Below are positions 1 to 32,000 of a stretch of DNA of 32,000 bases, piece by piece. Within the stretch, counting starts at the first letter, position 1. Every line of letters starts with the position of its first letter. The DNA comes from Candidatus Methanophagaceae archaeon (GTDB lineage Archaea > Halobacteriota > Syntropharchaeia > Alkanophagales > Methanospirareceae), in NCBI GenBank assembly GCA_003194425.1, contig PQXB01000001.1, forward strand, positions 670,444 through 702,443, in the 5' to 3' direction. A model generated the notes under the pieces. The model worked only from the letters and a program-made list of their open reading frames with translations. It made no database searches and was not told where the DNA came from. Position numbers and translations under genes: made by a program.

Positions 1-413
1 AGGGGGTGAAGAGCCACGTAGAAGCGGGCAGAGAGCGGATTTTTGCGTTAATTTCGGGCGCTGGGGGAGGGGAAGAGGAGGTAAAAAGAGGCGGAAAAAA
101 GAGAGAAGCGGCAGAAGTAGCAAGTCCTGAAGTAGCAAGCCCTGACCCTCCCACAAGAGACAAAAAAGGGAAAAAAGACGAAGAAGAGAGTGAAGAAGAG
201 AGTAAGGAAGAGTTTCAGGTAGTTCGAGCGTTAGAAGACCTGCCCACTTTTATGGGCATTGACGGCAGGATTTATAAAGTGAAAAAAGAAGATGTTCTTA
301 CGCTGCCCAAGACCAACGCTGAAATATTGTGCAACCGCGGAGTCGCAGTGCGGTTGAGAGGAAGGGGGAGGGTAGAAAGAAAAGGAGAAACAGAAACAAA
401 AACAGAAAAATGA
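1..413 (+). CDS. C-terminal part of a GINS-like (Gins51/Gins15-type) replication factor; the 5' end lies outside the window
   Basis: The frame of track ORF 6..413 is open to the window edge. From memory, the C-terminal segment [45 protein letters not shown] resembles the B-domain of archaeal Gins51. It is preceded by a low-complexity linker with EVASP x2 (114..143) and EEES x2 (181..204) tandem duplications. The stop overlaps the next start (ATGA at 410..413). Family call not verified. Confidence 0.4.
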
Positions 414-688
414 AAATGCCGAAACGACAGAGGGTGCACTGCCCGTTCTGTGGCAGGCACACCGTGCACGAGGTAGAAAAGGTAAAGAAGGGACGACCGT
501 CTTCGCTGACCTGGATTGTGGGGCAGAAGAAGCGCAGGTCAGGGCTTGGCAACGCAGGGAAGTTCTCGAAGGTTCCCGGCGGCGACAAGCCGACAAAAAA
601 GGTCTTTCTCAGGTACAAATGCACCGAATGCAAGAAGTCGCACCAACGAGCAGGCTTTAGAGTCTCCAAACTTGAACTCGTGGAGTGA
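410..688 (+). CDS. rpl44e: 50S ribosomal protein L44e (eL42)
   Basis: [22 protein letters not shown]...[13 protein letters not shown] has the CxxC...CxxC zinc ribbon and basic composition typical of L44e. ATG 410 lies inside track ORF 329..688, in the same frame. Confidence 0.9.
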
Positions 689-702
689 GGTGAAAACGGA
701 AA

Positions 703-888
703 ATGAAAAAAGAGAGAAAAACGAGGAGTAAATTCTTGGTTGTAAAATGTAGCGACTGCGAGAACGAGCAGGTTGTCTTTGACCACGCCTCAACGCTTGT
801 GAAGTGCAATGTCTGCGGTAGGACTTTGGTTGAGCCGCGAGGCGGGAAAGCAGAGACAACGGGCAGGGTAATTAAGGTGCTTGAGTGA
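703..888 (+). CDS. rps27e: 30S ribosomal protein S27e (eS27)
   Basis: 61 aa. FLVVKCSDCENEQVVFDHASTLVKCNVCGRTL is the S27e zinc-ribbon signature. The gene follows L44e as in many archaea. Confidence 0.9.
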   Translation: MKKERKTRSKFLVVKCSDCENEQVVFDHASTLVKCNVCGRTLVEPRGGKAETTGRVIKVLE

Positions 889-909
889 GACAACCTTCAG
901 GCAGTTATG

Positions 910-1044
910 TCAGCCTGCTTTAACCTCAACCTTTAACGCCTCACTGTAGCCTGCAATTGCTTCTCTGACGTTTCTTACCGCCTCTTCCCAGGTCTCCCCT
1001 GAGAGGCGCCCATTTGCTCTTCTCCTTTTTACAAAAACATTTCG
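910..1044 (-). pseudogene. Remnant of a HicB/UPF0150-family (antitoxin-like) gene, C-terminal fragment without a start codon
   Basis: The minus-strand frame reads RNVFVKRRRANGRLSGETWEEAVRNVREAIAGYSEALKVEVKAG*. The G-E-T-x-E-E-A-x-x-N-x-x-E-A-I-x-x-Y core matches the family motif PGCxSQGxTxEEAxxNxxEAI. The frame is closed by a stop just upstream and has no ATG, GTG or TTG. Confidence 0.35.
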
Positions 1045-1141
1045 TTAAGAAAGCGTTAAGAAAGAAAACTTTACCAAAGAAAAAAATAGAAATAGAAACA
1101 GTTTTTCAAAAAATTTAAAGAGAGAAAGATAAGAGAAAAAG

Positions 1142-1936: not shown

Positions 1937-2016
1937 AAAGAAAAACTTTACTAAAAGAAATTGCGAAAATGGTAAAACTTTCTTTTTGAGAAAGGTTTCT
2001 TTTAAAGAAAGGTTTT

Positions 2017-4247: not shown

Positions 4248-4296
4248 TTTATCTTTCTCTTCTCCTCTGTCTTTTTTTGTCTTTTATTTTGGTAAC

Positions 4297-4437
4297 TTTT
4301 CCTACTTATCTTTTGCTCCTTTTCCTACTTATCTTTTGCTTGCTTTAACCTTTGCTTGCTTTAACCTTAACTTTTAAACCGAGGTTAGCCGTAGAGGATA
4401 CCGAGGTTAGCCGTAGTACCGAGGTTAGCCGTAGAGG
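4297..4437. repeat. Three adjoining tandem duplications between the dnaG start and the tRNA-Val 3' end
   Basis: The three units are ttttcctacttatcttttgctcc x2 (23 bp, 4297..4342), tttgcttgctttaacc x2 (16 bp, 4335..4366) and accgaggttagccgtag x3 (4378..4434, spacing 22 and 18 bp). Confidence 0.85.
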
Positions 4438-4461
4438 CGTTTCCAACTTTAAAGGAAGAAA

Positions 4462-4534: not shown

Positions 4535-4598
4535 CGCACTTTTCATCTTGTTTCTTTTGCTATTTTTTATCTGTTTAATAAAAAATAAAAAAGGAAAG

Positions 4599-5819
4599 AT
4601 GAAAATAAAAGCGGTTAAGGGAGGGCTTTGCGCTGTGAACGGGGTGCGGGCGAACGGAGTAAGAGAGGGAAGCAAGGGGTTGGCGTTGATCGCGGGGAAG
4701 GAAAGAGGAGGGACGGCGGTAGGAATGTTCACGGCAAACAAGATAAAAGCAGCACCTGTACTGCTCACGGCGAGGCTGCTTGAGAAGGGCGGTGGGAGAG
4801 TAAGTGCAATAATTGCGAACAGCGGTTGCGCGAACTGTTTTACAGGGGCGGAAGGAAAAAGGAAAGCGGAGAGAATGGCGGAGCTCGTTGCTTCTTCGTT
4901 GGGCGTTCCCGAGGAAGAGGTCGCGGTCGCGTCTACCGGTCCGATCGGGAAGCAGTTGGACATTGGGCTAATCGAGAGGCAGCTCGGCGAGGTGGCGGAA
5001 GGGCTGACTTCTGAAGCGCGGGGAAGCACGGCGGCGGCGAAGGCGATAATGACCACTGACACCTTTCACAAGGAGCAGGCGGTGAGCATTGAGACCGACG
5101 CGGGCGGACGAGTGGCGGTCGGCGGAATTGCGAAAGGCTCGGGGATGATTTTTCCACACCTGCAGCTAAGCGGCGGCGGACGCGGGGCGACGATGCTCGC
5201 TTTTATTTACACGGACGCCGACCTCTCGGAAGAGGTGTTGAGAAGGAGTTTGGAGGACGCAGTTGAGAACTCGTTTAATATGGTCGTGGTGGACGGGGAT
5301 ATGAGCACGAACGATATGGTTTTGCTGGTCTCCACGGGGTCTGGAGAGGCAGGCGAGGCAGAGAAAATAAGTGAAGCAGAGTTTAGAGCGGGCTTGGATT
5401 TCGTCTGCAAGGAGCTTGCGAAGCAGATTGCGCGGGACGGCGAGGGGGCGACGAAGTTTGTTGAGGTGCGAGTGAGGGGGGCGTCGTCGGTTGAGGACGC
5501 GAGAGAAGTGGCGAGGGCAGTCGTCAGGTCGCCGTTGGTGAAGAGTGCGATTTTTGGCGGGCGCCGCCCTGACCTCGTGCGTGGTCGTGTAGCTGCAGCG
5601 GTCGGGAGTTGTGCCGTCGCTGGCGAGTTTGGAGAAGAGGAACTCTCGGTAACCTTGAAAAGCGAGGGCAGGGAAATTTTTATTGAAGTGGATTTGGGCG
5701 CAGGGGCTGGCGCAGGGGCGAGAGCAGGGGAAGGAAAGAGAGAAAGGAAGGGAGAAGGAGAAGCGACGGCGTGGGGCTGCGACCTTTCTTACGACTACGT
5801 CCGGATAAACGCGGGTTGA
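4599..5819 (+). CDS. argJ: Bifunctional ornithine acetyltransferase / N-acetylglutamate synthase ArgJ
   Basis: GCANCFTG, MTTDT and the self-cleavage motif GATMLAFIYTDA are present, and the C-terminus is DYVRINAG. ATG 4599 was chosen inside track ORF 4548..5819. There are insertions next to the cleavage site and near the C-terminus (GAGAGAGARAGEGKRERKGEGE). Confidence 0.9.
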   Translation: MKIKAVKGGLCAVNGVRANGVREGSKGLALIAGKERGGTAVGMFTANKIKAAPVLLTARLLEKGGGRVSAIIANSGCANCFTGAEGKRKAERMAELVASSLGVPEEEVAVASTGPIGKQLDIGLIERQLGEVAEGLTSEARGSTAAAKAIMTTDTFHKEQAVSIETDAGGRVAVGGIAKGSGMIFPHLQLSGGGRGATMLAFIYTDADLSEEVLRRSLEDAVENSFNMVVVDGDMSTNDMVLLVSTGSGEAGEAEKISEAEFRAGLDFVCKELAKQIARDGEGATKFVEVRVRGASSVEDAREVARAVVRSPLVKSAIFGGRRPDLVRGRVAAAVGSCAVAGEFGEEELSVTLKSEGREIFIEVDLGAGAGAGARAGEGKRERKGEGEATAWGCDLSYDYVRINAG

Positions 5820-6435: not shown

Positions 6436-7851
6436 TCACCCCCAATCTTCCCCGCAGCCATTCAATTCTATTCCCACTTCCAACACATCCAACTCCTTCA
6501 CCTCCGCTTTCACTTCGACTCCCCCCTCCTCGGCTCCCCCCACCTCGGCACCGAGCAACTCACTCAAACTCGGCTTCGTCCTTCCTCCGTCCCCTGAAAC
6601 GAGTTCTTTTATGTACAAACCTCCCTCGCATTTTATCTCCACCACTGCCTTCACCTCCAAGAGTGCAGGCTCTTCAAACGAGGAGTCCGAGACAGAGAGC
6701 AACCTCGCACTCTGCACTCTCCGCTGCCGCACCAAGTCCGCCCGTCGGTGCAGCACCCTCGTCGGCGTCCTTTGCTTTACCACCGCACCAGTCAGCACAG
6801 CCAAAGCATTTCTCAAATCCTCTTCAGACACCTTCGCCTTTGTCTTCGTCTTCAACGCCACCACGACCCTGTAAGTCTTGTCAGGCTTCTCCTGTTTTAC
6901 CTTCGCCACCGCCTCTCGCCCAACGAGCCGAAGACCCAGAACCTCTATTTTTCCCCTGCACTCCGGCTCCGACCGAATCCGCTCCTCTAACCTCCGCAAG
7001 TCCAAATCCACGCCCTCTCCTTCTCTCCGCCGTCCTTCTCTCCGCCGTCTCGGCTTCTTTACCTCGAGCACAAAAGGGCGACCAGAGCCGAGCATTCGTG
7101 CGTCAATGTCCTCTCGCCCGCAGCCGTGCAGCACTAACTCCTCTCCCCCAAACTCCTCCAACACCGGCCCACCCAGCAGTTCTTCGACTGACTCGGCGTA
7201 AAGTTTCCCTGTAAAACCACACCTCTCGCAGCCCCTACCGCGGCACTCCCCGCAGAACCACCTCGTCTGCGGCAGCCCCCGTTCGAACTTCCTGTACCTG
7301 CCGTAAACGAAGACCGGGCTCACCTGCAACTCCACCTCCTCCGTCCACAAGTTCAGCACCACCACGACCTCAGGCGACGCAAAATCAACAACCCTCGCGG
7401 TCTCTCGCTCTAACCGCTTTCCCACCTCCCTGTTCAACTCTGCCTTCAGCGGCTCGGCGTAAGTCGCCCCCGCAGTCTCCCAGAGCAGTTCCTCGTTCTC
7501 CAGCAGCAGCCCGCTCACTTTCGTGCCGACCAGAAACGAGCCGAACTCGTACTCCTTCAGCCGCTCCAACGCCCTCGCCACCCACGCCTCCAAATTCTCA
7601 CTCCGAAACAGACCGTTGCAGACCCAGCATTTTCCCTCTTCTATTCCCTCTTCTATTTCTTCGTCTTCTTCGTCTCTCAAGGACTCTTTTACTACCCGCC
7701 CCCGCTCCTCGTTCGAGAGACCCGAGGAAATCTTCGCGAACTGCCTGCCGAGGCAGTTGTCGCAAATTGGTCCTTCTTTTATTATTTTTAGTGCGATTTT
7801 TGCTACTTCCTCTGCTCTTAAGTCTTTAAAATTTTTCATCAACTCACTCAT
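6436..7851 (-). CDS. pus10: tRNA pseudouridine synthase Pus10
   Basis: CDNCLGRQF...CWVCNGLF zinc-binding N-terminus, CGECRGRGCERCGFTGK motif and a C-terminal GGLYIKELVSGDGGRTKPS motif. The start at MSELMKNF overlaps the thrS stop (ATGA at 7848..7851). Internal RRREG x2 (7019..7048) and IEEG x2 (7632..7655) duplications are present. Confidence 0.8.
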   Translation of the reverse strand: MSELMKNFKDLRAEEVAKIALKIIKEGPICDNCLGRQFAKISSGLSNEERGRVVKESLRDEEDEEIEEGIEEGKCWVCNGLFRSENLEAWVARALERLKEYEFGSFLVGTKVSGLLLENEELLWETAGATYAEPLKAELNREVGKRLERETARVVDFASPEVVVVLNLWTEEVELQVSPVFVYGRYRKFERGLPQTRWFCGECRGRGCERCGFTGKLYAESVEELLGGPVLEEFGGEELVLHGCGREDIDARMLGSGRPFVLEVKKPRRRREGRRREGEGVDLDLRRLEERIRSEPECRGKIEVLGLRLVGREAVAKVKQEKPDKTYRVVVALKTKTKAKVSEEDLRNALAVLTGAVVKQRTPTRVLHRRADLVRQRRVQSARLLSVSDSSFEEPALLEVKAVVEIKCEGGLYIKELVSGDGGRTKPSLSELLGAEVGGAEEGGVEVKAEVKELDVLEVGIELNGCGEDWG

Positions 7852-9887
7852 GCACCCACGAACTTTGCACGCTCCGACAACCTGTAAGAACCTGGCAATC
7901 CCCGGAACGGCTTCCCTCTCAACCCCGCCGCCAAAATCCGCTCCTTCAACGCAGCAGCACTCACCTCCTCCCTCGTTCCCTTCCCCTTCGCTCCGCTCGA
8001 CCTTACCGTAACACTCAAAGTCTTCCGCTCCACTTCCCTGTCCCCGACCACCGCGACAAAAGGAATCCACTCACGCCCCGCGTCCCGGATCTTTTTCGAG
8101 ACCGTCTCCTCGCGGTCGTCCACATCCACTCTTATTTTGCTTAACAACGGCAGAACCTCCTCAACGTACTCCAAATGCCGCTCCGCCACCGGAATTATCC
8201 GCAACTGCGTAGGAGCGAGCCACAGCGGAAGCATCGGCAGAACCCCCTTTCCCTCTCCTCCCGCTCCTGCCTTTTCAGTCTCCAAATACGCCTTCTCAAG
8301 CAGAGCGTAAATGCACCGCTCGATCGCACCGCTGGGCGAGCAGTGAAGAATAATCGGGCTCCTCTCCTCGCCGTCCGCAGTCACGAATTTTATGCCGTAC
8401 CGCTCCGCGTTCTCAACATCAATTTGCACGGTCGAGAGAGCCGACGCCTTGCCCAACGCGTCCACGAAGTTGAACTCGAACTTGAGCACGAAGTAGAAGA
8501 ACCGCTCGTCCCACTGCTCCACAAGCACTGGCTTGCCCGCCGTCCGCGCCAACTCAGCTACAAAGTCCTTGTTCGCACCTCTCTCCTCCTCTTTCTCCTC
8601 CTCCCCCCCCGCCTCTTCGTAAGCCTCTTCGTAAAACTCCTTCGTAAATCTAATCGCGACCTCGTAGTCCTTCGCAGAAAATCCAATCCCTTCCAAAACC
8701 CGAATGCAGAGCTCGTACTGTTTCTTGAACTCCTGCAACGCTTCTGGAATGTCCCGGCAGAAAGTGTGCATATCCGGCATCGTGAACTTTCTCAGACGCC
8801 GCAGCCCCACGAGTTCGCCCCGTTTTTCACGCCTGAACGACGAAGCGAGTTCGAAAATCCGAAACGGCAGGTGCTTGTAAGAAATGCTCGCGTCCTTCGC
8901 CATCAAGAACTGCCCGAAGCAAGCAGCAAAACGCAGGAACAAGTCCGCCTGCCCTACTTTTTCCTGCCTCTTCTCCTGCCCCTTCTTTTCCTTCCCTGCC
9001 TTCTTTTCCTTCCCTGCCACCGAGTACTGCCTTGCAGGGAAGCGCTCGAGGTAGTCTTTCAGCGACGGGTGTGTAGTGCTGTACATTATCGGCGTCTCCA
9101 CCTCCGCAGCACCGTAGCCCGCAATCGAATCCCGAACAAAGTCTTCCAGCAGCGACTTTATCAACTTCCCCTTCGGGTAGAACCGCAAGTTCCCGGGGTC
9201 CGAAGACGGCTCGTAGTCCGCAATTTCTAACCGCTTCATCAACTCCACGTGCGGCGGCACCTTGTCCACTGCCCTCCTTTTCTCGCTCTCGTACACGAAG
9301 AACCGCCGTAAATTCTCCCTCTCTCTTCGTTCTTTACCGAAATCAAAATCCTTGGGTCTCACAAGACCGCCCTCCTCGTCCAGAAAGAAGAACTGCGACT
9401 CCGCTTTCTCCTCCGCCTCCAACGCCTTTGACTTCTTTTTTACTGCCCCTCCCTCCTCACGAGCAGGAGCCCGAATTTTCCGCGACAACTCGGAGAGCGG
9501 GTGCCCCTTGCACCGCAGGGAAAACGACTTGTACCAGCCAAACGGCGCCCTCCTCACTTCCACACCCCGCGAACCCAACGCCTGCACCAGCCCCTTCAAA
9601 ATCTCAACGCTCTGTCCTGGCGACGCCAACTCCGAGCTCAAATGCGCGTAAGGGTACAGAACAACCCGCTCTGCACCGACCTTCTTAAAGACAGAGACCA
9701 CTTCTTCCGTCGCCCGCTCTACCACGCCGCTCGCATCTTTCTCGTCCTCTCGCTCCACCGCAGTAAAAACAACCAAGACCTCTTCTACACGCTCTCGCTT
9801 CTCCAATTCGGGAATCGGCTCCGCAACCCGCGTCTTCGCTCTCACCTCGTATTCTAAGTAGTCAGAATGCACTAACAGCAGTTGCAA
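7848..9887 (-). CDS. thrS: Threonyl-tRNA synthetase, archaeal type with N-terminal editing domain
   Basis: The N-terminus (M)QLLLVHSDYLEYEV is typical of the archaeal ThrRS editing domain, and a class II core and anticodon-binding domain are recognisable. The apparent start codon is TTG at 9887. Low-complexity insertions include AGKEKK x2 (8982..9017). Confidence 0.9.
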   Translation of the reverse strand: MQLLLVHSDYLEYEVRAKTRVAEPIPELEKRERVEEVLVVFTAVEREDEKDASGVVERATEEVVSVFKKVGAERVVLYPYAHLSSELASPGQSVEILKGLVQALGSRGVEVRRAPFGWYKSFSLRCKGHPLSELSRKIRAPAREEGGAVKKKSKALEAEEKAESQFFFLDEEGGLVRPKDFDFGKERRERENLRRFFVYESEKRRAVDKVPPHVELMKRLEIADYEPSSDPGNLRFYPKGKLIKSLLEDFVRDSIAGYGAAEVETPIMYSTTHPSLKDYLERFPARQYSVAGKEKKAGKEKKGQEKRQEKVGQADLFLRFAACFGQFLMAKDASISYKHLPFRIFELASSFRREKRGELVGLRRLRKFTMPDMHTFCRDIPEALQEFKKQYELCIRVLEGIGFSAKDYEVAIRFTKEFYEEAYEEAGGEEEKEEERGANKDFVAELARTAGKPVLVEQWDERFFYFVLKFEFNFVDALGKASALSTVQIDVENAERYGIKFVTADGEERSPIILHCSPSGAIERCIYALLEKAYLETEKAGAGGEGKGVLPMLPLWLAPTQLRIIPVAERHLEYVEEVLPLLSKIRVDVDDREETVSKKIRDAGREWIPFVAVVGDREVERKTLSVTVRSSGAKGKGTREEVSAAALKERILAAGLRGKPFRGLPGSYRLSERAKFVGA

Positions 9888-9900
9888 TTTTCTCTTCCTC

Positions 9901-9942
9901 TCCTTCCTCTCCTTCTCCTTCCTCTCCTTCTCCTTCCTCTCC
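9901..9942. repeat. 15-bp tandem repeat in the thrS leader
   Basis: tccttcctctccttc x2 plus a partial third copy. It is purine-rich (GGAGAGGAAGGAGAA) on the thrS sense strand and ends about 14 nt upstream of the TTG start. Confidence 0.85.
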
Positions 9943-9950
9943 GCTCTCCT

Positions 9951-9973
9951 TTTTATATGTTTTTATTTATAAA
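9951..9973. promoter_or_regulatory. Candidate shared TATA-like element of the divergent thrS/glmS promoters
   Basis: ttttatatgtttttatttataaa is the only AT-rich block between two divergent genes, and repeat-containing leaders flank it on both sides. The assignment is by position and composition only. Confidence 0.4.
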
Positions 9974-10018
9974 GAGAGGAGCAAAGAGAGGAACAAAGAG
10001 AGGAGCAAAGAGAGGGAA
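9971..10018. repeat. 12-bp tandem repeat in the glmS leader
   Basis: aaagagaggagc / aaagagaggaac / aaagagaggagc / aaagagagggaa, four copies, each with a GAGG Shine-Dalgarno-like core. Confidence 0.85.
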
Positions 10019-10051
10019 AAAGCAAAGTGATGGAAAAAGAGAGGGTAAAAA

Positions 10052-14751: not shown

Positions 14752-14957
14752 AACTTAATCTCCTGTTTTTAAAAAATAAAATCTTCTCTATTAGAATATG
14801 TGAGTTGGCGATGAACAGAATTAAAAACGAGATTTCACAGACACGATTGAGTAGCTTAGGTAGAGAAGTAGGTGCAGGTGTAGGTGCTGGTGCAAACACA
14901 GAGCAGGAAGAGAAAAATGTATTTTTAAGGAAAATAATTAGTAAAAATCCAAAAAGT

Positions 14958-16781: not shown

Positions 16782-16798
16782 CGGTGGTTTAGCGGTTG

Positions 16799-20412: not shown

Positions 20413-20466
20413 TTTTTCGAACTCCCTTCCTTTTTCGAACTCCCTTCCTTTTTCGAACTCCCTTCC
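20413..20466. repeat. 18-bp tandem repeat x3 in the leader of the 19809..20405 gene
   Basis: tttttcgaactcccttcc x3, plus a partial copy (tttttcga, 20405..20412) whose first t is the A of the minus-strand ATG (20403..20405). The sense-strand unit is GGAAGGGAGTTCGAAAAA. Confidence 0.9.
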
Positions 20467-20473
20467 TTACTTC

Positions 20474-21442: not shown

Positions 21443-21591
21443 AAATTTACCTTTCTCTTTAAAATTTACCTTTCTCTTTAAAAGGTTTAACTTGCCCTAC
21501 CTCTCTCTACCTTACTCCTCTCCCTACCCTACTCCTCTCTCTACCCTACTCCTTTCTCTACCCTACTCCTCTTTCAACCCTACTCCTCTCT
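21443..21591. repeat. Two tandem arrays between the htpX start and the cmk end
   Basis: aaatttacctttctcttta x2 (19 bp, 21443..21480) and a 17-bp unit (ctaccctactcctctct and variants) x5 (21507..21591). The second array runs into the last codons and stop of cmk. Confidence 0.85.
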
Positions 21592-22135: not shown

Positions 22136-24982
22136 TCACCCCTTAATCACGCCGACAGCCCGAAAAGCCGCCACCTTCTTCGCAATTCCCGCAACCTCGC
22201 AACTCCGAACCACGACCTCGGGGTCTTTGTAAGCCGCGGCAACCTCCTCCGCCAACTCGCCGTACTTGTCAAATTGAAGCCCTCGTCCTCGTTTCCGACG
22301 CACATCTTTTTTCGTCCGCTCCTGCGCCTTCACCAAAATGTTCCGCTTCGCCAACTCGGCTCGCACCTCGCTACCGCGGTATTTCCGCATCGCCGCAGTC
22401 CTGCTCATCTCGCGACCGCTGCCGTGCGCACAGCTGCCAAAAGTCTCAGATTTCGCTGCTTCCGTTCCCACGGCTAAAAAGCTGCGTCTGCCCATCGAAC
22501 CCGGAATCAAGACAGGCTGACCAACGCTTCTGTAAAAGGCAGGCAGTCGTTCGTCGCCCGCGGGAAACGCTCTCGTCGCCCCTTTTCGGTGCACGCACAA
22601 CTTCCTCCGCTTCCCGTCCACCAAATGCTCCTCCTGCTTCGCAATGTTGTGTGCAATGTCGTAGACCAGCCGAATCCCCAAATCCCCTCTCTTCGCGTCC
22701 GCACTCCTCCGCAGCACATTTTCAAAGACCTCCCGCACCCAGTGCGTCGCGAGTTGCCGGTTCGCAAACGCGTAGTTCGCACACGCAGACATTGCCTCAA
22801 AATAGTCCCTCCCCGCCCTGCTGCTCAAGTACGCGCAAGCCAACTCCCGCTCTAGCGTGAGTATTTTCGAGAGCGTCGGGTCCCTGCTCATCTCCCGCTC
22901 AAAAGTTCGCAGGTAGTAGGTGCAGACTCCGTGCGAGAAGCCCCGACCGCCGGTGTGAATTAGAACTGTTACCTGCCCTTCTTCTTCGATTCCGAACGCC
23001 TTCGCGAGCCGAGCGTCAAAAATCTCGTCGACCACCTGCACCTCAAGGAAGTGGTTGCCGGAGCCGAGCGTGCCGAGTTGCGGCGCACCCCGCTTCCTCG
23101 ACTTCTCGTCGATCTTCGCCGGGTTCGCAGCCTCCAGCCGCCCTCCCTCCTCGGTCCGCTCCACGTCCTCCTCCCAACCGTAGCCGTTCTCAACGCACCA
23201 CTCCGACCCACCCTGCAGCACCTCGTCCAACTGGCTGTACGACAACCTCACCTTCCCAGACAGCCCCAGCCCCGCGGGAATTGACTCAAACAGCCCGTCC
23301 AAAATCGCAGGCAGGTGTGGTCTCACCTCCTCCTCGCTCAAGTCGGTGCGGAGCAGCCGGACGCCGCAGTTGGAAACCACGAAACAGTCGGCGACGAAAT
23401 TGTGATTCTTGTCCTTCACTGAGAGGTCGTACACCCGCTCGTTAAACGGCTCCTCCTCTAACCCCACAATTTCATCGTAAACCACCTCCCCGTCTGAAAA
23501 CCGCTTCAAGAACTCTTCAAACTTGACGAAGCCAAACGGTGGTCTGGCTCTCTTCAGCCTCGTGTAAACGACAGCCGCCAACGCAAGTCGTCTTCGCTCT
23601 CTGTTGTACTCGTAGCCCACCCTCGACAAAAGCCTAACAAGGTTCTCTGGGTTCGCCTTTACCAAGAGCCTGTAAATCCTCCTCTCCTCGGTCTCCTCGG
23701 TCTTCTCGGTCTCCTCGGTCTCCTCGGTCTCCTCAGAAACCGAGACTGTCGAACTCACGCCGAACTCGGTCAGCATTTCTTGCAACTCACTCAAGAATTC
23801 GTCGCTTCCCTTCTCCCTCTCCCTGCTCTTGTTCACAGACCGCTTTACCTCGGGCATAAAAAAATTGTAGCCGTTCAGGGTCTTTGATTTTGACATTTCC
23901 GCCCCGAAGAAAGAGGCTAAGAACAGTCGCTTCAGCCATTTCGGCAGCCTGAGCAGCCACTCTGGAATTCGCAAATCCTCCTCCTTTTTTCCCTTCGGGT
24001 AGCCGAGTGCAAAGAGAAGTTCAGCGAGACTCCGTGCAGAGACCTTTAAACAAGCCTCCTTCGTGCAGAACTCGTAGCCCTTGAGGCGGTGGTTTCGCTC
24101 TCGCTCGTAAATTCTGCCCGCGTAGCCCAGAACACGAATGTCCGTTTTAATCTCCTCCAAATCCGCCTTCTCCCCGTAAAAAACCACATTTTTGTCGCAA
24201 ACCGTCCCGTCCCCCAGCAAGTAGCCGAAAATCTTCACGAGGTAAGGCAGCTTGGCGTTCTCGGCAGCGAGCGGCGGAGCCAGCCTCCGCTTTTTTAACT
24301 CCGCTCTGACCGCTCTGCTGAACTCTTGCTCGTCTTTCTCAGAGAGAATCTCAAATCTCGGCGGTGCCTCAAACTCCACGCCCTCAAACGGGTGAACCCC
24401 AACCGCCTCGCCGAGCGAGAGATTTCGTGCCTCTTTCATTCCTGCTCTCGTGAGAACCGGGTGGTCTTTAGTGAGCCTCAGCTCAAACCCCGCCGCGGTT
24501 CTGACCCTCACCAAACTCCTCTCCGCCCTGCTCAACGCTAAAACGACTTCCGTCGGCTTCGCTTGACCTTGCCTCAGAACCGCGACCTCCTCGCCCGGCA
24601 AGACACTCTCAATCTCAACCCAGTACCCCAGAGGACTCAAAACTTTGGTCTCGGCGGGAAGGCAGTTTATGTCGTACCCGACCCCGCCTGGTGAAATGAC
24701 GCCCTCTTCGAAGTCCGTAGCTGCGACGCCGCCGATTGGAAACCCGTAGCCCTGGTGCCCGTCTGGCATTACCAGCGAATATTTCTCGATGCCCGGAAGC
24801 GAGGCGACCGTGATCGTCTGCTGCAGCGTCAGGTCGCCCTTCATCTTCTCTAACAGCCCTTCAGCCGCGTAAATCCGCGCCGGCACCCGCATGTAGTCCT
24901 TGTAAGTCTGCGGCACTTCCCACACATCTTCCCGTATCTTTTTAAGCGGAACTCCCCCCTTCCTCTCCCTCTCCCCTTTCAT
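22136..24982 (-). CDS. rtcB: RNA-splicing ligase RtcB, interrupted by an intein
   Basis: The start was chosen at MKGERERKGG (ATG 24982). Extein motifs are MPDGHQGYGFPIGGV, GGVGYDIN|C...|CGVRLL, GSGNHF and a C-terminal HRKGATRAF...PGSMG...CHGSGR. The longer track ORF (to 25333) reads through an unrelated repeat region. Confidence 0.9.
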   Translation of the reverse strand: MKGERERKGGVPLKKIREDVWEVPQTYKDYMRVPARIYAAEGLLEKMKGDLTLQQTITVASLPGIEKYSLVMPDGHQGYGFPIGGVAATDFEEGVISPGGVGYDINCLPAETKVLSPLGYWVEIESVLPGEEVAVLRQGQAKPTEVVLALSRAERSLVRVRTAAGFELRLTKDHPVLTRAGMKEARNLSLGEAVGVHPFEGVEFEAPPRFEILSEKDEQEFSRAVRAELKKRRLAPPLAAENAKLPYLVKIFGYLLGDGTVCDKNVVFYGEKADLEEIKTDIRVLGYAGRIYERERNHRLKGYEFCTKEACLKVSARSLAELLFALGYPKGKKEEDLRIPEWLLRLPKWLKRLFLASFFGAEMSKSKTLNGYNFFMPEVKRSVNKSREREKGSDEFLSELQEMLTEFGVSSTVSVSEETEETEETEKTEETEERRIYRLLVKANPENLVRLLSRVGYEYNRERRRLALAAVVYTRLKRARPPFGFVKFEEFLKRFSDGEVVYDEIVGLEEEPFNERVYDLSVKDKNHNFVADCFVVSNCGVRLLRTDLSEEEVRPHLPAILDGLFESIPAGLGLSGKVRLSYSQLDEVLQGGSEWCVENGYGWEEDVERTEEGGRLEAANPAKIDEKSRKRGAPQLGTLGSGNHFLEVQVVDEIFDARLAKAFGIEEEGQVTVLIHTGGRGFSHGVCTYYLRTFEREMSRDPTLSKILTLERELACAYLSSRAGRDYFEAMSACANYAFANRQLATHWVREVFENVLRRSADAKRGDLGIRLVYDIAHNIAKQEEHLVDGKRRKLCVHRKGATRAFPAGDERLPAFYRSVGQPVLIPGSMGRRSFLAVGTEAAKSETFGSCAHGSGREMSRTAAMRKYRGSEVRAELAKRNILVKAQERTKKDVRRKRGRGLQFDKYGELAEEVAAAYKDPEVVVRSCEVAGIAKKVAAFRAVGVIKG
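23369..24664 (-). mobile_element. Intein (432 aa) with LAGLIDADG homing-endonuclease domain inserted in RtcB
   Basis: It begins CLPAETKVL directly after GYDIN and ends FVVSN, followed by Cys +1 (CGVRLL). Block B is TKDHPVLT. The LAGLIDADG motifs are IFGYLLGDGTV and LFLASFFGAEMS. Removing it restores the conserved GYDINCGVRLL. The penultimate residue is Ser rather than the usual His. Confidence 0.85.
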
Positions 24983-25035: not shown

Positions 25036-25061
25036 GAGAAAGAACAGTTTGGTGAAAAAAG

Positions 25062-26012
25062 ATGAATTTCGTTGTTCTTGCATTTTCTGAATTCTTGAAT
25101 TGGGTTGTCTTAAACTGGAACTGGGACGCCCTCGGTGTAATATGCAATAGTATTCTTGTTTTTGTGCTGGTTGTTATATTCTTGAATTGGGTTGTCTTAA
25201 ACTGGAACTGGGACGCCCTCGGTGTAATATGCAATATTATTCTTGTTTTTGCGCTGGTTGTTATAACTTGGTGGTACGCAAAGAAAGTTAGCGAACAAAC
25301 GGAATTAATGGTAAAAGACCGAGAAAGAAACAAGATTTTAGAGGAGGTTCAAGATGTTTTAACGCCGACTATTCTTTCTTTGAAAACGGAAATTAAAGCG
25401 ATTCAGGACAACAAAATCTTTTGGAAGCGTTATCCCTCATGGGTAGGTTTCGACGAGAAAGGACCCTCAAAACTTTTAACAGACAATAAAAAAGACCGTA
25501 GTGGTGCAGTAAAAGACATCTTCAGAAAGTTCCCTATATTGGAGGGGAGATTTTCTTCCCACGATTCTTTATGTGATAAACTGAATGATTTCTACGCCAA
25601 AATTGAAAGCGAGGTTAAAACCCCGGAACTTACAGAACGCTTAAAAACTCTGGTTAAGGAATTCAATGAATCACGAGAGGGTTCTTATAGAATAAGTAAG
25701 GAGCATTCTGAAAACCCCGATCAGATTTTTGTGTATTGTATCATAAATTTTAGATATCCGATAGAACGAAGCTCAGATTCCCCCCTACCTAATATTACCC
25801 CCCTACCTAATATTATTTTTTGGGAAAAATACAAAAATGAATTATTAAAATTTAGAGACACCGCACAGATTAAAGAACTTGATAAAGAAATTGAAGAAGT
25901 ACTAACTCAATTAAGAAAATTAGATGAGGAACTTTTAGGGAAGATTGAAGAGATAAGAGAGGATTATCGAGTAACGTACAACTTTACTAAATATGAAATT
26001 GACTCTGAATGA
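25062..26012 (+). CDS. Hypothetical membrane-anchored protein with charged, probably coiled-coil C-terminal region (no family recognised)
   Basis: 316 aa with an ATG start. The N-terminus has a 29-aa hydrophobic module repeated twice, followed by a K/E-rich soluble part. Codon usage is AT-rich, unlike neighbouring genes. Internal PLPNI(T/I) x2 comes from an 18-bp duplication (25780..25815). Confidence 0.6.
   Translation: MNFVVLAFSEFLNWVVLNWNWDALGVICNSILVFVLVVIFLNWVVLNWNWDALGVICNIILVFALVVITWWYAKKVSEQTELMVKDRERNKILEEVQDVLTPTILSLKTEIKAIQDNKIFWKRYPSWVGFDEKGPSKLLTDNKKDRSGAVKDIFRKFPILEGRFSSHDSLCDKLNDFYAKIESEVKTPELTERLKTLVKEFNESREGSYRISKEHSENPDQIFVYCIINFRYPIERSSDSPLPNITPLPNIIFWEKYKNELLKFRDTAQIKELDKEIEEVLTQLRKLDEELLGKIEEIREDYRVTYNFTKYEIDSE
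25091..25264. repeat. 87-bp tandem duplication (2 copies, 2 mismatches seen)
   Basis: Copy 1 is 25091..25177 and copy 2 is 25178..25264 (attcttgaattgggttgtcttaaactggaactgggacgccctcggtgtaatatgcaata...gctggttgttat). It is in frame and duplicates FLNWVVLNWNWDALGVICN(S/I)ILVF(V/A)LVVI. Confidence 0.95.
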
Positions 26013-26093: not shown

Positions 26094-26786
26094 TCACTTC
26101 AACACCTTCCCCGTCTCCAGCCACCACAAATACAAATCCAACTCCCCCAAACTCATCCCTACCTCCCCCGCCAAACCCTCCAACCTCCGCTCCAACTCCA
26201 AATACTTCCTCTTCGTCAGTGCCTTCGTCAACCTCCCAGGAATCTCCTCACAAATCCCGAACCTCTGCATCGCACGCAAAATATGCCGGTCCAAAATCGC
26301 GACATTTCCAAACCCCAGATTCCGCAAAAAATGGCTCGCCTCTTTGTAGCCAAGACCCTTAACATTTTTAACCAGCCACTCTCGTGCCCTCCTCTCGTCT
26401 CCAAACGAGCCAACAACCGCTTTTACCCCGCTCCCAACTTTCCGCCGCGCAGCCACGATAAATTCACTCCGCCGCTTGTAAAATCTGTGCCCCTCTTCTT
26501 TCAAAACCGTCTCTAACTCCTCTAAAGGCAGATTCAAGAACCCGTTAGACCCTTCCCCTTCCTCTGCCTCTTCCCCCAACCGCTCTTGAATCTTCATTCC
26601 AAGCGCTGCCGAAGAATTCGCGGTCAGCAGACAGAAACAGAGCTCCGAGAACCAACGCTCCCCTCCTCTCTCTCGATTCGCCTCAAACTCTTCTAACCTC
26701 GTTTTTATCTGGCTCGCTACTCTCCTATCTTTTTGTAAAACAACGAGTTCCTTTTTAATATTTAGTTTTTTTTTAATATCTAACAT
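26094..26786 (-). CDS. N-glycosylase/DNA lyase (archaeal Ogg2-type 8-oxoguanine glycosylase, HhH-GPD)
   Basis: WFSELCFCLLTANSSA, the KGLGYKEASHFLRNLGFGNVAILDRHIL helix-hairpin-helix with catalytic Lys/Asp context, and a length of about 230 aa. A GEEAEEGEGS insertion is present. Confidence 0.8.
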   Translation of the reverse strand: MLDIKKKLNIKKELVVLQKDRRVASQIKTRLEEFEANRERGGERWFSELCFCLLTANSSAALGMKIQERLGEEAEEGEGSNGFLNLPLEELETVLKEEGHRFYKRRSEFIVAARRKVGSGVKAVVGSFGDERRAREWLVKNVKGLGYKEASHFLRNLGFGNVAILDRHILRAMQRFGICEEIPGRLTKALTKRKYLELERRLEGLAGEVGMSLGELDLYLWWLETGKVLK

Positions 26787-27957: not shown

Positions 27958-28014
27958 TTCTCTCCTCTTTTTCACCTTCTCTCCTCTTTTTCACCTTCTC
28001 TCCTCCTTTTCACA
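27958..28014. repeat. 19-bp tandem repeat x3 between rpl39e and rpl31e
   Basis: ttctctcctctttttcacc x2 plus a diverged third copy. The sense-strand unit is GGTGAAAAAGAGGAGAGAA, and the array ends 1 nt before the rpl31e ATG. Confidence 0.9.
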
Positions 28015-28177: not shown

Positions 28178-28470
28178 CGTATCTTTCAAAACTTCTTTTT
28201 ATTTATTAAATACAAGAAAAGAACGAATGTTAGGAGGGAGGGAATAAAAATGGGGAAACACAAAAATTTTTGAGAGTGGCGGACGTGCAGGCGTTTCCGG
28301 ACGACTTGAGTGAAAGAACTTCGGGTCAGAGGAGGGCGAGGGCGGGGCGAGAAGTAGGAAAAGGTTTTTTAGTCAAGGTTTCTAAACCGAGCAATACTCA
28401 ACTTTTTATTGAACAATTATAAATGAATAAGAGAAGAAAAGAAAAGAGAAGAGAAGAGAAAAGAAGAAAG

Positions 28471-28842
28471 ATGAAACTCGGAATATCGGCGGATTTCAGC
28501 GCTGCACACTCGCTGCCCCGACACCCAGGGAAATGCAAGAACCTGCACGGGCACACCTACAAAATTGAGGTGGTGGTAGAGGGTGAGAAGAAGGAGGGGA
28601 CGGAGTGCGTGGCGGATTTCGCGGAAGTGCGGGCGCTGGTAGAGGGGGTGCTTGAACTCGTTGACCACAAGTTCCTGAACGAGATAATTTCGTACCCAAC
28701 GAGCGAGAACATTGCGTTGTTTCTGGGGGGGGAGTTGGAGAAGAGGTTGCGAGGCGCGGATTTGGAGTTGGGCGTGAGGCTGCGTTCTGTAAAAATATGG
28801 GAAGGCAAGGACAAATGGGTGAAGGTAGAGTATGAAAACTGA
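28471..28842 (+). CDS. queD: 6-carboxy-5,6,7,8-tetrahydropterin synthase / 6-pyruvoyl-tetrahydropterin synthase family (QueD)
   Basis: [22 protein letters not shown] carries the zinc/catalytic His and Cys motifs, and the protein is about 123 aa. ATG 28471 was chosen because the upstream part of track ORF 28423 is a GA-rich leader. Confidence 0.8.
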
Positions 28843-29764
28843 AGAGACGAAGAGGGAGAGAGGAGAAGGAGAGGTAGGAGAGGCAGGAAAGGCAGGAAAG
28901 GCAGGAAAGGCAGGAAAGGCAGGAAAGGCAGGAGAGGAAGAGGATTTGGTAGACGCGAGAATGGGAAAGGTAAAGCACAAGATAATGGTGATGAGCGGAA
29001 AGGGGGGAGTGGGAAAGACGACGGTAGCTGCGAACCTCGCTTTTGCTCTCGCGATGCGGGGTTTGGATGTGGGCTTGATGGACGCGGACATTCACGGACC
29101 AGACATTCCAAAAATACTAGGAATTGAGGAGCAGCGACCGGAGGTCTCGGAAGAGGCGGGGAAAATGCGTCCGATTTTGGTCACGCCGCGGCTGAAAGCG
29201 ATGTCAATCGGGTTTCTGCTTCCTGACACGGACTCCCCGATTATCTGGCGAGGACCGATGAAAATGAACGCGATCCGGCAGTTCCTCTCGGATGTTGAGT
29301 GGGGCGAGCTGGACTACTTGGTCGTTGACTTGCCCCCCGGAACTGGCGACGAGCCGCTCAGCGTTGCACAACTGCTGAAGAATGTGGACGGTGCGATAAT
29401 TGTAACGACGCCGCAGGACTTGGCGTTGCTGGATTCGAGGAAGGCGGTGAACTTTGCGGGGGTGCTGAAAGTGCCGGTCGTCGGGATAATTGAAAATATG
29501 AGCGGGTTTGTCTGCCCTCACTGCGGAAAGGAGACGAGGATTTTCAAGTACGGCGGAGGCGAGAGAGCAGCAGCGGAGTTGGGCGTGCCGTTCCTCGGGC
29601 GAGTGCCACTTGACTCGAAGATGGTCGAGGCCGCAGACAGCGGAACGCCGTTCGTGCTGCAGCGAGAGGCGGAGGCGACGGCGCGAGAGGCGTTTGAGCA
29701 GATTGTTGAGAAAGTGCGGGCGTTTGTGGAAGCTGACCCCAAGCTAAAGCAGAGGGAGTTCTGA
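28832..29764 (+). CDS. Mrp/NBP35/ApbC-family Fe-S cluster carrier ATPase
   Basis: Deviant Walker [12 protein letters not shown], DxPPGTGDE, and the CPHCG CxxC cluster-binding motif. The start is ambiguous. ATG 28832 overlaps queD and adds an N-terminal tail with (GKA)5. ATG 28961 ([16 protein letters not shown]) would place the repeat in the leader. Confidence 0.85.
28882..28935. repeat. 9-bp tandem repeat x6 at the 5' end or leader of the Mrp gene
   Basis: ggcaggaaa x5 followed by ggcaggaga. Confidence 0.9.
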
Positions 29765-29993
29765 GGTCGGTAGCGTCCTTACCGTTGCCTCTTTGGGAAT
29801 CCGTGCTCCCCTACGCAGCAATCTGCTAATGCACGCACAATGCTCGCCCACCACCCACGAGCAGCATGTTGTAGTATATATATTTCTTCTTCTTATAATT
29901 TCTTCTTCTTATATTTTTTCTTCTTCTTTGTTGATCCTGTGGCATATCGGAAGGAGGGCGTGGTAATTGGAGTAGGTGTGATCGCAGGTTAAA

Positions 29994-30965
29994 ATGTTTA
30001 GTCTTTTTATCTCAGCGTCTCTGACTGCCCTTTACTGGCTGTTTCGGGTTGTGCCAGTCGTAGCCACGGGCATCTTTGCAACGAGTTTCGCAGTCAACCT
30101 CGGGCTGATGAAGAAGTTCAGCAGGCTGGTAGAACCGCTCTCCAGCAAAGCCAAAATCAGTGCAGTCTCGGCTCTCGCAGTCGTAACCTGCACTTTCAGC
30201 ACCACCGCGGGTTACTCAATGCTCGTGGACGGGCTGAACAAAAAGGTCGTCTCGGAGCAGGAGGTCGTCGCAACCACGCTAATCTCCTCCTTTCCAAGCA
30301 TCCTTTCTCACCTCTTCACATTTTTCATCCCCGTCATAATTCCGATTCTTGGGCTCACTACAGGAGCGATTTATGTCTGCCTCGTTGGGCTCGTGGCACT
30401 CTTAAAGTCGTGCTTTGGCGTTTTCCTCGCGAGGCTGTGGCACTCTGCAAACCCCGAATCCAGCAAATCCAAACTCTCAAACCCCCAAACCCCAAAACCT
30501 CTAACCTCAAACCTCAAGCAAGAGGCGTTAAACAAGAGTACCCGAAGCACCTACAAAATGCTCAAGCGGGTTGTGCCGACGATGTTCGTCACTCTTTTTC
30601 TGGTCTCGGTGGCGGAGGAACTGGGGCTGTTCGAGTCGTTCTCTGCGGTTTTACAGCCGCTCACGAGCGTTCTGGGTTTGGAAAGCGAGGTCGTCCTAAT
30701 CAGTGCAACCGATGTTGTGAACTCTTACTCTGGACTAATCCTCGCGGGCAGCCTTCTGGAAGGGGGGCGGGTAACGACGAGAGGGGTGCTGGTTGCGTTG
30801 CTGCTTGGAAATGTGGTCTCGTTCTCTGCGAGGTTTGCGAAGCACTCGCTACCGCTCCACTTCTCGCTCTTTGGACCGAGGTTGGGGAGCAGGACGGTTG
30901 CGGTAAACGCGGGGACGACGCTTGTTTTGGACGCGGTTTTTATTGTTGTGCTACTGATGATTTAG
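29994..30965 (+). CDS. Polytopic membrane protein, possibly of the nucleoside-recognition (Gate) domain family
   Basis: 323 aa with multiple hydrophobic segments in two halves, joined by a low-complexity hydrophilic linker ([25 protein letters not shown]). The family call is from general resemblance only. Confidence 0.5.
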
Positions 30966-31036
30966 AAGTTTTAAGTATTGTTATATCGTTTTAAATAGTT
31001 ATAAATTTATAGGGGTAAAATAAAAAAAGAAGGGAA

Positions 31037-32000
31037 ATGACACACCACATCAGAAGAGAAATATTACCGTTTACCGCGATTGTGGGGCAGGAGCGGATGA
31101 AGAAGGCGTTGGTTTTGAACGCGGTTAACCCGCGAATCGGCGGCGTGCTTATTCGGGGCGAGAAGGGGACGGCGAAGTCCACTGCCGTGCGGGCGCTTGC
31201 AGAACTGCTGCCTGAGATTGAGGTGGTAAAAGGCTGTAGGTTCAACTGCAACCCTCACGACGAGGCGGAGATGTGCGACCTCTGCTACGCCAAGAGGACG
31301 AACGAGAGAGCGAACAAGGACGGAGAAGAAGGAGAAGAAGGAGAAGAAGGAGAAGGAAGAGAAGAAGGCGAAGGAAGAGAAGAAGGCGAAGAAGAAGGCG
31401 AAGAAGGCGAAGAAGAAGGCGAAAGAGGAGAAGGACGGGAGGGGAAACAGGAGGTAGCGAGGCGGAGGATGTGGGTCGTCGACCTTCCGCTCGGTGCGAC
31501 CGAGGACAGGGTCGTGGGCTCAATAAATGTGGAGAAGGCGATAAAAGAGGGGATAAAAGCGTTAGAGCCGGGCATTCTGGCTGCTGCGAACCGAGGCATT
31601 CTTTACATCGACGAGGTGAATCTCTTGGACGACCACGTCGCGGATGTCATTCTCGATTCCGCGGCGATGTCAATAAATGTGGTCGAGCGCGAGGGCGTCT
31701 CGGTCTCGCACCCCGCTAAATTCATCCTCGTCGGTACGATGAACCCCGAAGAAGGCGAGCTCAGACCACAACTCCTCGACAGGTTCGGACTTCAAGCCAG
31801 CGTAGAAAGCATCGACGACGCGGAGAAGCGGGTGGAGATTGTGAAGCAGGTGGAGGGTTTTGAACGAGATCCGGCAGAGTTCAGGGAACGGTTCGAGGCG
31901 CGACAGAGAGCGTTGCGGGAGAAGATTGTGCAGGCGAAGCAAATTCTTAAGGCGGTGCAGATTAGCGACGATTTGCTGAAACTGACCGCGGAGACCTGCG
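31037..32000 (+). CDS. Mg/Co-chelatase ATPase subunit (ChlI/BchI family, AAA+); the 3' end lies outside the window
   Basis: It is absent from the ORF track because no stop occurs before the window end. My translation from ATG 31037 reads [49 protein letters not shown] (Walker A)...[15 protein letters not shown]...[17 protein letters not shown] (Walker B)...[20 protein letters not shown]. An E/G-rich repeat insertion is present. Confidence 0.85.
31322..31430. repeat. GA-rich tandem array inside the chelatase ATPase gene
   Basis: ggagaagaa x3 (31322..31348), ggaagagaagaaggcgaa x2 (31355..31390), then gaagaaggcgaa-type units. It encodes [33 protein letters not shown] in frame. Confidence 0.9.

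Follow-up and report, generated by a model that had tools for sequence, protein, structure and literature searches.

Short tandem duplications, variable in copy number among strains, in a chromosomal region of an ANME-1 archaeon

The 32,000-nucleotide stretch considered here in its whole length (the window; positions 670,444 to 702,443 of contig PQXB01000001.1, assembly GCA_003194425.1) is chromosomal DNA of an uncultured, distinct ANME-1 (Methanophagales) lineage, and it is crowded with near-perfect short tandem repeats, which lie in spacers, leaders and housekeeping genes and differ by whole units among nearly identical strains. The chromosomal assignment is indicated by the ribosomal-protein, aminoacyl-tRNA synthetase, aIF2 and biosynthetic genes at the locus; LeuC, ArgC, LeuD, Cmk and HtpX are also clustered in other ANME-1 loci, and in one strain the locus is held on a 363-kb contig (GCA_026133975.1). 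The closest match of the LeuC protein is a 'Methanophagales archaeon' protein that is 96% identical, with the mismatch confined to the repeats, while the matches after it are ~77% identical and are labelled ANME-1, Methanophagales or Methanosarcinales.

The window is ~91% coding, with 2.7 kb of non-coding DNA, and the sense-strand purine content of its genes is 57-65%. The gene order begins with GINS51, L44e, S27e, aIF2-alpha, Nop10, PAC2, archaeal DnaG and tRNA-Val, continues with ArgJ, a fumarase-C-like gene, Pus10, ThrRS and GlmS, followed by a sugar-nucleotidyltransferase, a PGM/PMM (GlmM-like) mutase, a truncated D12 methyltransferase and an epimerase, and then by ArgC, LeuD, LeuC, PspAB, HtpX and Cmk. 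RtcB with a 433-aa intein, a 1.1-kb low-GC island and Ogg come next, and the window ends with a presumably intron-containing tRNA, eIF6, L31e, L39e, PTPS, Mrp/ParA, a Gate-domain membrane protein and a ChlI-like AAA+ ATPase.

Every repeat coordinate given in an earlier note on this DNA was recovered; one of these loci, 11897-11931, is missed by Tandem Repeats Finder (TRF) but shows up in the strain comparison, where an 18-bp unit is present or absent. The catalogue below rests on TRF, an exact scan and indels in strain alignments, with alleles given in each row and other strains named by L numbers.

114..145 (+), GINS51: 15 bp x2.1, EVASP twice; three copies in L092
180..212 (+), GINS51: 12 bp x2.8, EEES repeats; L091 allele 30 bp shorter
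374..408 (+), GINS51 C-terminus: 18 bp x1.9 with a 6-bp sub-period
1043..1083 (+), aIF2-alpha leader: perfect 11 bp x2 and an imperfect 15-bp repeat; single copy in L096
1118..1150 (+), abutting the aIF2-alpha start codon: polypurine 13 bp x2.5
1979..2015 (+), aIF2-alpha/Nop10 spacer: 17 bp x2.2
4296..4368 (-), DnaG leader: 23 bp x2 and 16 bp x2.1; the 16-bp unit in 1, 2 or 3 copies among strains
4378..4437 (unstranded), downstream of tRNA-Val: 18-22 bp x3; at least 4 length alleles
5696..5730 (+), near the ArgJ C-terminus: 12 bp x2.9, GAGAGAGARAG
6511..6549 (-), near the Pus10 C-terminus: 15 bp x2.6
7018..7049 (-), Pus10: perfect 15 bp x2.1, RRREG twice
7632..7675 (-), Pus10: perfect 12 bp x2.2 and 9 bp x2.1; 12-bp unit single-copy in 5 strains
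8611..8647 (-), ThrRS: 12 bp x3
8962..9018 (-), ThrRS: 12-bp and 18-bp repeats, AGKEKK; at least 5 length alleles
9894..9951 (-), 12 nt upstream of ThrRS: 15 bp x3.5, polypurine on the sense strand; alleles +15 and -15 bp
9971..10039 (+), GlmS leader: 12 bp x4.3, unit AAAGAGAGGAGC; 4 alleles
11897..11931 (-), near the NTP-transferase C-terminus: 18 bp x2, VLRENR twice; single copy in 4 strains, protein 460 vs 466 aa
13802..13865 (-), PGM/PMM (GlmM-like): 9 bp x6.2 with a 27-bp super-period, (GGS)n; alleles -9 and -36 bp
14206..14287 (-), GlmM-like: 9 bp x2.4 and 6/18 bp x3.2 (KKA; GEVE); L096 allele +24 bp
14868..14892 (+), truncated D12 methyltransferase: 12 bp x2.1
16775..16800 (unstranded), filling the epimerase/ArgC convergent spacer: 11 bp x2.4
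17179..17209 (-), ArgC: perfect 15 bp x2.1, ELGAG twice; single copy in L001 and L005
19523..19615 (-), LeuC: 15 bp x6.1, GREAG/GGETG; alleles -15 and -30 bp
19618..19660 (-), LeuC: perfect 21 bp x2, FEVLEEL twice; single copy in L001 and L002
19784..19815 (-), PspAB stop codon and LeuC leader: 12 bp x2.7
20413..20468 (-), filling the HtpX-PspAB spacer: perfect 18 bp x3.1, a repeat by the Borg definition given below; two copies in L001 and L002
20477..20546 (-), HtpX C-terminus: 15 bp x2.1 (GLEGF twice) and 12 bp x1.9
21443..21483 (-), HtpX leader: perfect 19 bp x2.2; single copy in L001 and L002
21500..21592 (-), Cmk 3' end and spacer: 17 bp x5.5; L001 -34 bp (2 units)
23683..23734 (-), RtcB intein: 9 bp x5.8, ETE repeats; alleles +9 and +27 bp
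25091..25265 (+), ORF (open reading frame) of the strain-specific low-GC island: 87 bp x2
25780..25815 (+), the same island ORF: perfect 18 bp x2
26550..26576 (-), Ogg: 6 bp x4.5, EEAEEGEG; +15 bp duplication in L001 and L002
26752..26790 (-), Ogg start: 18 bp x2.2
27958..28013 (-), filling the L39e-L31e spacer: 19 bp x2.9; L001 -19 bp
28429..28471 (+), PTPS leader: pure-purine 5/10/15-bp repeat; L001 -30 bp
28867..28937 (+), Mrp/ParA N-terminus: 9 bp x7.9, (AGK)n, likewise a Borg-type repeat; L001 +9 bp
29877..29925 (unstranded), upstream of the Gate-domain membrane gene: 16 bp x3.1, TATA-like unit
31312..31435 (+), ChlI-like AAA+ ATPase: nested 9/12/18/21-bp repeats, ~12 copies, (GEE)n
31536..31559 (+), ChlI-like gene: 12 bp x2

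Repeat excess, strain variation and lineage specificity

TRF was used as the repeat finder and its overlapping rows were merged into loci. At a score of at least 30, the 90 rows in the window merge into 59 loci, compared with 5.6 +/- 1.8 loci in dinucleotide-preserving shuffles, and at a score of at least 50 there are 31 loci (1,760 bp, 5.5% of the 32-kb window) against 0.1 in the shuffles, in agreement with the at least 30 duplication loci claimed in the earlier note. When codons are shuffled within genes, all coding repeats vanish and only the ~11 unshuffled intergenic loci stay, so that codon usage by itself predicts about zero coding repeats. Perfect repeats with at least two copies and a period of at least 7 number 45 in an exact-match scan. 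Unit lengths are spread broadly over 9-27 bp, with one of 87 bp and few below 9 bp, and among the 56 distinct units found across strains none is common to two loci. A CRISPR array was ruled out, as the units follow each other head-to-tail without unique spacers.

Contigs of other strains were collected from ENA, JGI, NCBI and Logan by exact-protein look-ups with LeuD, aIF2-alpha and GlmS, and were aligned in 19 segments with MAFFT in fast mode; the comparison reaches window position 29478, its alleles are assembly consensus sequences, and gain and loss are not polarised. Strains of the same species differ from the window by ~0.4-0.5% point substitutions (~99.5% identical) and show 51 distinct indels, namely 10 of at most 5 bp, 2 of 6-8 bp, 38 of 9-36 bp and one of 140 bp. 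Nearly all indels of 9-36 bp are whole-unit gains or losses, or lie inside imperfect arrays. About 26 repeat loci are polymorphic, several with 3-5 alleles, as are ~19 of the 27 comparable TRF loci with a score of at least 50, and one, two or three copies occur among strains at loci 4335, 9899, 114, 17179, 19618, 21443 and 7632. Repeat events in a strain pair amount to roughly one per 5-10 substitutions, and one contig without any substitution over 3.9 kb has one 15-bp LeuC unit fewer. Protein lengths vary with the strain (ThrRS 672-685 aa, GINS51 246-261 aa, GlmM-like 503-521 aa, LeuC 440-459 aa). The sole large indel without a repeat is found in L090 (JGI 3300005264), where 140 bp are gone inside ArgJ at window position 5380, so that two ORFs stand in place of one; the gap is either a true deletion allele or a mistake of the assembly.

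Density was compared in GTDB species representatives, in which a scan with a LeuC alignment gave 80 loci, each a single region of ~2-21 kb per species. The window has 0.97 loci/kb, as against 0.067/kb in 43 loci from other ANME-1 or ANME-1-like species (491 kb) and 0.055/kb in 36 loci from other archaea (383 kb), or ~15 times the density of the 79 comparison loci together (874 kb); for periods of 9-30 bp only, the values are ~0.94/kb and ~0.04/kb. The 8.9 kb upstream of the window have 1.13 loci/kb, and another strain of the lineage, L101, has 0.98 loci/kb. Archaea have been reported to have the lowest short-repeat density among the domains, with no enrichment over simulated genomes (PMC12699852). 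No paper linking ANME-1 or Methanophagales chromosomes to pervasive short tandem repeats was found in the literature searched, and we found no earlier report of such a syndrome in an ANME-1 chromosome there; a recent ANME-1 hotspot study dropped variants of 50 bp or less.

The insertions are also young. The LeuC insertion (FEVLEEL twice, followed by six GREAG/GGETG units) is lacking in 16 LeuC proteins of other ANME-1, one of which carries an unrelated ENANENANAN repeat in the same loop, and the ELGAG duplication of ArgC is absent from 15 other ANME-1 orthologues, which together are all the ANME-1 orthologues compared. Since other ANME-1 genera have orthologues without the insertions, the process must be recent and still under way. 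Density, age and the artefact checks all support the active duplication process in this lineage that the earlier note had proposed.

The same kind of repeat syndrome is seen in the Lost City lineage ANME-1-LC (L050), with 0.87 loci/kb; its periods are divisible by three in 4 of 4 loci inside ORFs and not divisible by three in 11 of 12 loci outside them (the remaining 1/12 being divisible), and its repeats have no purine bias. As ANME-1-LC is a second repeat-rich lineage among repeat-poor relatives, the syndrome is sporadic within ANME-1. Two other repeat structures were noticed in the comparison loci. In L050, a composite intergenic module occurs twice, ~8 kb apart (4371-4569 and 12330-12484), made up of GGGTTCA xn, (GCCTTTA x7), TATTTCTTGAGAT x2 and AACCCTG/AACCGTG xn, and looks like a dispersed repeat element built of short tandem repeats. 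In L032, another ANME-1-like genome, a 132/267-bp tandem repeat with 83-88% identity lies in an ORF (7858-8449); it is a repeated protein domain, unlike the short duplications in kind.

Given that the window's genes are purine-loaded and that the data are metagenome assemblies, the repeats could be ordinary low complexity that comes with purine loading in a thermophile's genome, or could be artefacts of assembly. Composition- or codon-preserving shuffles yield about zero repeats, however, and relatives with equal purine loading lack them. The same repeats recur, differing by whole units, in at least 10 independent assemblies, which come from the four sources and were produced with different assemblers; the read length exceeds that of the arrays, and the coding units are in frame. 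Low complexity or misassembly can thus be set aside with near certainty.

Reading frame, composition and junctions

Within genes the repeats preserve the reading frame. The period is divisible by three in 24 of the 26 loci lying wholly within genes, the two exceptions being degenerate low-complexity matches, and in all 13 of those with an identity of at least 90% and a score of at least 50 (p=5e-10 for coding loci against the one-third expectation). Intergenic periods are divisible by three in 7 of 12 loci (Fisher p=0.02, coding vs intergenic), so that the first half of the earlier rule, that coding periods are multiples of three, stands, whereas its second half, that non-coding periods are not, does not. 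Repeats are 7-fold denser in non-coding than in coding DNA (6.2 vs 0.89 loci/kb); most spacers longer than ~40 bp hold a repeat, and several consist of repeats almost entirely, including a convergent 3' spacer. Phase-variable contingency loci were rejected, since the clean coding units are all divisible by three and the affected genes are housekeeping genes.

The coding insertions sit in loops, termini, linkers or the RtcB intein. In an alignment with the PDB sequence, the LeuC insertion (residues 40-85) stands opposite residues 67-76 of 4nqy, and the (GGS)n tract of the GlmM-like protein is an alignment gap against PDB 1wqa. From their position at termini, in linkers, in the intein and at gaps in structure alignments, it follows that the insertions lie outside the catalytic cores, contrary to the proposal that they interrupt conserved enzyme cores. 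An AlphaFold2 model of LeuC (18-sequence alignment) had a mean pLDDT (predicted local distance difference test) of 37.8, was unusable, and did not serve to place the insertion. Placement, the frame filter within genes and the 7-fold higher non-coding density all fit the idea of frequent mutation filtered by selection.

It has been proposed for Borgs, the repeat-rich elements discussed below, that repeats are functional (PMC9879509), and the repeats described here could similarly be adaptive, selected as functional disordered segments and as regulatory elements in leaders, in the form of extra Shine-Dalgarno-like or TATA-like units. This would suit the many leader repeats with GGAGG/GAGAGG-type units directly upstream of start codons, the one TATA-like unit, and the independent ENANENANAN repeat in the LeuC loop of another ANME-1. 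On the other hand, repeats are 7-fold denser where constraint is lowest, the convergent 3' spacer included, near-identical strains differ widely in copy number, orthologues of the affected housekeeping enzymes work without the insertions, and no common unit sequence or junction motif exists. Selection for function is therefore unlikely as the general explanation, while some leader or loop repeats may have an adaptive role.

The sense-strand purine fraction of the repeats exceeds that of their own genes by 0.16 on average (p=6e-5), as had been noticed for genes on both strands. Glu (2.5x) and Gly (2.6x) are the only residues enriched in the peptides that they encode, so that of the G/E/K/R/S/T-rich insertions described previously the Gly and Glu part holds and K, R, S and T show no enrichment. 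In the divergent spacers DnaG/ArgJ (4248-4598) and ThrRS/GlmS (9888-10051), each leader is its own sense-strand polypurine array, with GGAGG/GAGAGG units near the start codons; these arrays may be multiplied ribosome-binding sites.

The purine bias and the polypurine arrays of the divergent leaders would also be expected if non-template polypurine tracts formed R-loops or H-DNA during transcription and thereby led to nicking and duplication, which was the mechanism proposed in the earlier note. H-DNA-type mirror repeats (purine/pyrimidine, arms of at least 10 nt, spacer of at most 8 nt) number five in the window and overlap only 4 of 43 repeat loci, too few for H-DNA as a general cause or as a precondition of the repeats. 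Repeats are found in the convergent spacer and in the low-GC island ORF, which is not purine-rich, and the same bias on the coding strand would follow from selection for hydrophilic insertions. Across 63 loci, repeat density is not correlated with purine asymmetry or with the density of purine/pyrimidine runs (rho 0.15 and 0.08), and purine loading and polypurine-run density were rejected as causes on this ground; several equally purine-loaded ANME-1 relatives have about zero repeats. Because ANME-1-LC shows the syndrome without the bias, purine richness is not intrinsic to it, and the view of the bias as a property of the mechanism had to be given up. A transcription-linked origin through non-B DNA is accordingly improbable, somewhat more so than an adaptive one.

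Junctions were examined by k, the number of nucleotides by which the periodicity runs past two exact copies, with in-silico duplications as the null, in 32 simple duplications pooled from the window, the strains and the upstream flank. A value of k=0 is found in 5/32 (16%) against 52% expected, k of at least 2 in 18/32 against 20%, and k of at least 4 in 9/32 against 3%; in seven of the latter nine, the extension is an incomplete third copy of 7-17 nt. Junctions without a partial extra copy have 0-5 nt, mostly 1-2 nt, and 2 of 25 reach 4 bp. The view that there is no microhomology at all was dropped, since the microhomology in the enlarged set (n=32), though short, is significantly in excess. 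No junction sequence motif was found beyond general purine richness.

Origin of the repeats and parallels with Borgs

The observed excess of the repeats, their lineage specificity, youth, copy-number polymorphism, reading-frame filter and junction anatomy are probably explained by a high, lineage-level rate of short tandem duplication, combined with gain and loss of whole units and with purifying selection. Short segments, mostly of 9-27 bp, would be duplicated in tandem at an unusually high rate, and the duplicated units would then be gained or lost whole by strand misalignment in replication or repair. The input of duplications would be broadly distributed, with a local preference for purine-rich, low-complexity sequence and very short microhomology at the junctions. 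Outside genes nearly any unit length could survive, and spacers would turn largely into repeats, whereas inside genes only frame-preserving units would be kept, where flexible Gly/Glu-rich peptides fall in loops, termini, linkers or the intein. We infer that the cause is a heritable replication or repair feature of the lineage, which might be, for example, polymerase slippage, strand displacement or 5' flap processing on the lagging strand; rad27 mutants and slippage by archaeal PolB and PolD are known cases consistent with a cause of this kind. Most of the repeats would then be neutral or slightly deleterious passengers.

Several points weigh against this explanation. The contiguous sequence seen is a single region of ~41 kb, beyond which the trait probably extends; recombination between strains could redistribute alleles and inflate the apparent recurrence; the purine and Gly/Glu bias fits a mutational preference or selection alike; and the microhomology excess is not significant in the window alone (n=17), only after strain alleles and flank are added.

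The closest known match to a process of this sort is provided by the repeats of Borgs, a parallel not drawn in the earlier note. Borgs are linear, giant-sized extrachromosomal elements of Methanoperedens with pervasive tandem repeats (Schoelmerich et al., 2023, PLoS Biol, PMC9879509). With a repeat defined as perfect, of at least three units and at least 50 nt, repeats make up 0.62% of Borg genomes and at most 0.01% of host genomes, the hosts being reported as virtually repeat-free (PMC9879509). By the same definition, repeats make up 0.50% of the window, which equals the Borg density, and 0.86% of the upstream flank. In both systems the repeats are short and near-perfect with a unit of their own at each locus, unit lengths are multiples of three within genes and free of this constraint between them, the repeats are absent from homologues, and composition is biased on the coding strand; copy number varies in populations of Borgs and among closely related genomes here, and partial repeats flank some arrays (here 7/32 simple loci, 7-17 nt). 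The repeats of the window differ in that they lie on a cellular chromosome of ANME-1, which is not a known Borg host, in that the bias is toward G+A (Gly/Glu) and not A (Pro/Thr/Asp/Lys), and in that they lie in core housekeeping genes and their surroundings (ThrRS, LeuC, ArgC, GINS, ribosomal-protein spacers), the affected proteins being cytoplasmic enzymes as opposed to extracellular or membrane proteins in Borgs. Most arrays here have 2-8 copies.

For Borgs, a dedicated repeat-adding enzyme system, based on an integrase or a nuclease, has also been raised as a possibility (PMC9879509), and the partial flanking copies at some arrays could be read in this way. Unit lengths are continuous (9-27 bp, and one of 87 bp), though, every unit has a sequence of its own, the junctions yielded no motif, and no candidate gene lies within the 41 kb examined, all of which makes a dedicated enzyme highly improbable.

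A second parallel is offered by microhomology-mediated tandem duplication (MTD), for which a duplication-mutator phenotype of rad27/FEN1 has been described; about half of the variable duplications there have arms longer than 3 bp, and the detection tool is built on arms of 4-25 bp (Wei et al., 2026, preprint, 10.64898/2026.02.28.708716). The repeats of the window share with MTD the course from single-copy segment to tandem duplication to multiple copies, the microhomology above chance at junctions and the reversible transitions between one, two and three copies at the same loci, but their microhomology, mostly of 1-2 bp, is shorter than the published MTD arms. The resemblance to other systems is more limited. 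Bacterial variable-number tandem repeats (VNTRs) and contingency loci share with the window the hypervariable copy number through slipped-strand mispairing; contingency loci, however, are few, have units mostly of 1-9 bp, switch surface or restriction genes on and off by frameshift and are kept by selection, whereas dozens of loci per 30 kb lie here in housekeeping genes, in frame and with no on/off logic. Housekeeping proteins of Plasmodium falciparum carry lineage-specific, slippage-derived low-complexity insertions in surface loops that mirror the nucleotide bias of the genome; there, however, the setting is a eukaryote with extreme AT bias and insertions that are Asn/Lys-rich and mostly degenerate, compared with near-perfect units of 9-27 bp in an archaeon here.

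Whether Borg repeats are made by the host or by the element is an open question, and the near absence of such repeats from host chromosomes was emphasised in the Borg study. The occurrence of this syndrome, equally dense, in the chromosome of an ANME-1 cell implies that a cell's own genome can be in such a state, with repeats reaching an aminoacyl-tRNA synthetase, leucine and arginine biosynthesis and replication genes. It is conceivable, if doubtful at present, that a heritable tandem-duplication mutator state exists in free-living archaea, in the lineage of the window and independently in ANME-1-LC, and that it is the same process that makes the repeats of Borgs. If so, the determinant would be cellular (replisome, flap processing or a repair polymerase) and not Borg-encoded, it could be found by comparing repeat-rich with repeat-poor sister ANME-1 genomes, and core enzymes would receive a continuing supply of new disordered segments. 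The natural contrasts between repeat-rich and repeat-poor sisters and the dozens of polymorphic loci open the cause to tests by comparative genomics and read-level population analysis. The region also offers a clear case of mutation pressure making new Gly/Glu-rich loops in conserved enzymes and, in practical terms, ready VNTR markers for tracking strains of uncultured methane oxidisers, and it calls for caution when genomes of this kind are assembled and annotated.

Other features of the region

The RtcB intein (433 aa, 23366-24664, minus strand, CLPAETKV...VVSN/C) contains the 9-bp ETE repeat, and RtcB varies between 948 and 959 aa among strains. Between RtcB and Ogg lies the 1.1-kb low-GC island (24993-26095, GC ~0.36-0.41), which L001 and L002 lack; its single ORF (25062-26012) holds the 87-bp duplication and has a hydrophobic N-terminus, with no credible Pfam match. 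The D12-class adenine methyltransferase gene (14811-15356) is truncated in the window by a 136-bp out-of-frame deletion with its junction at 15345, and is whole in L003 (341 aa) and L101 (340 aa). The surrounding region (~14.8-15.9 kb) has low GC and looks horizontally acquired, and in L101 a gene of 254 aa without a Pfam match adjoins the methyltransferase.

At 26824-26938 (plus strand), a tRNA of 115 nt is matched by an Rfam model with 52 bits and is missed by ARAGORN, so that an intron is presumably inside it; strains show a 13-bp duplication directly downstream and a 1-bp indel directly upstream of it. At the 3' end of LeuC, a 4-bp indel (TTTT/AAAA) at 18402 alters the C-terminal tail and also sets the spacing between LeuC and LeuD, which abut in the window and are 17 bp apart in L001, L005 and L006.

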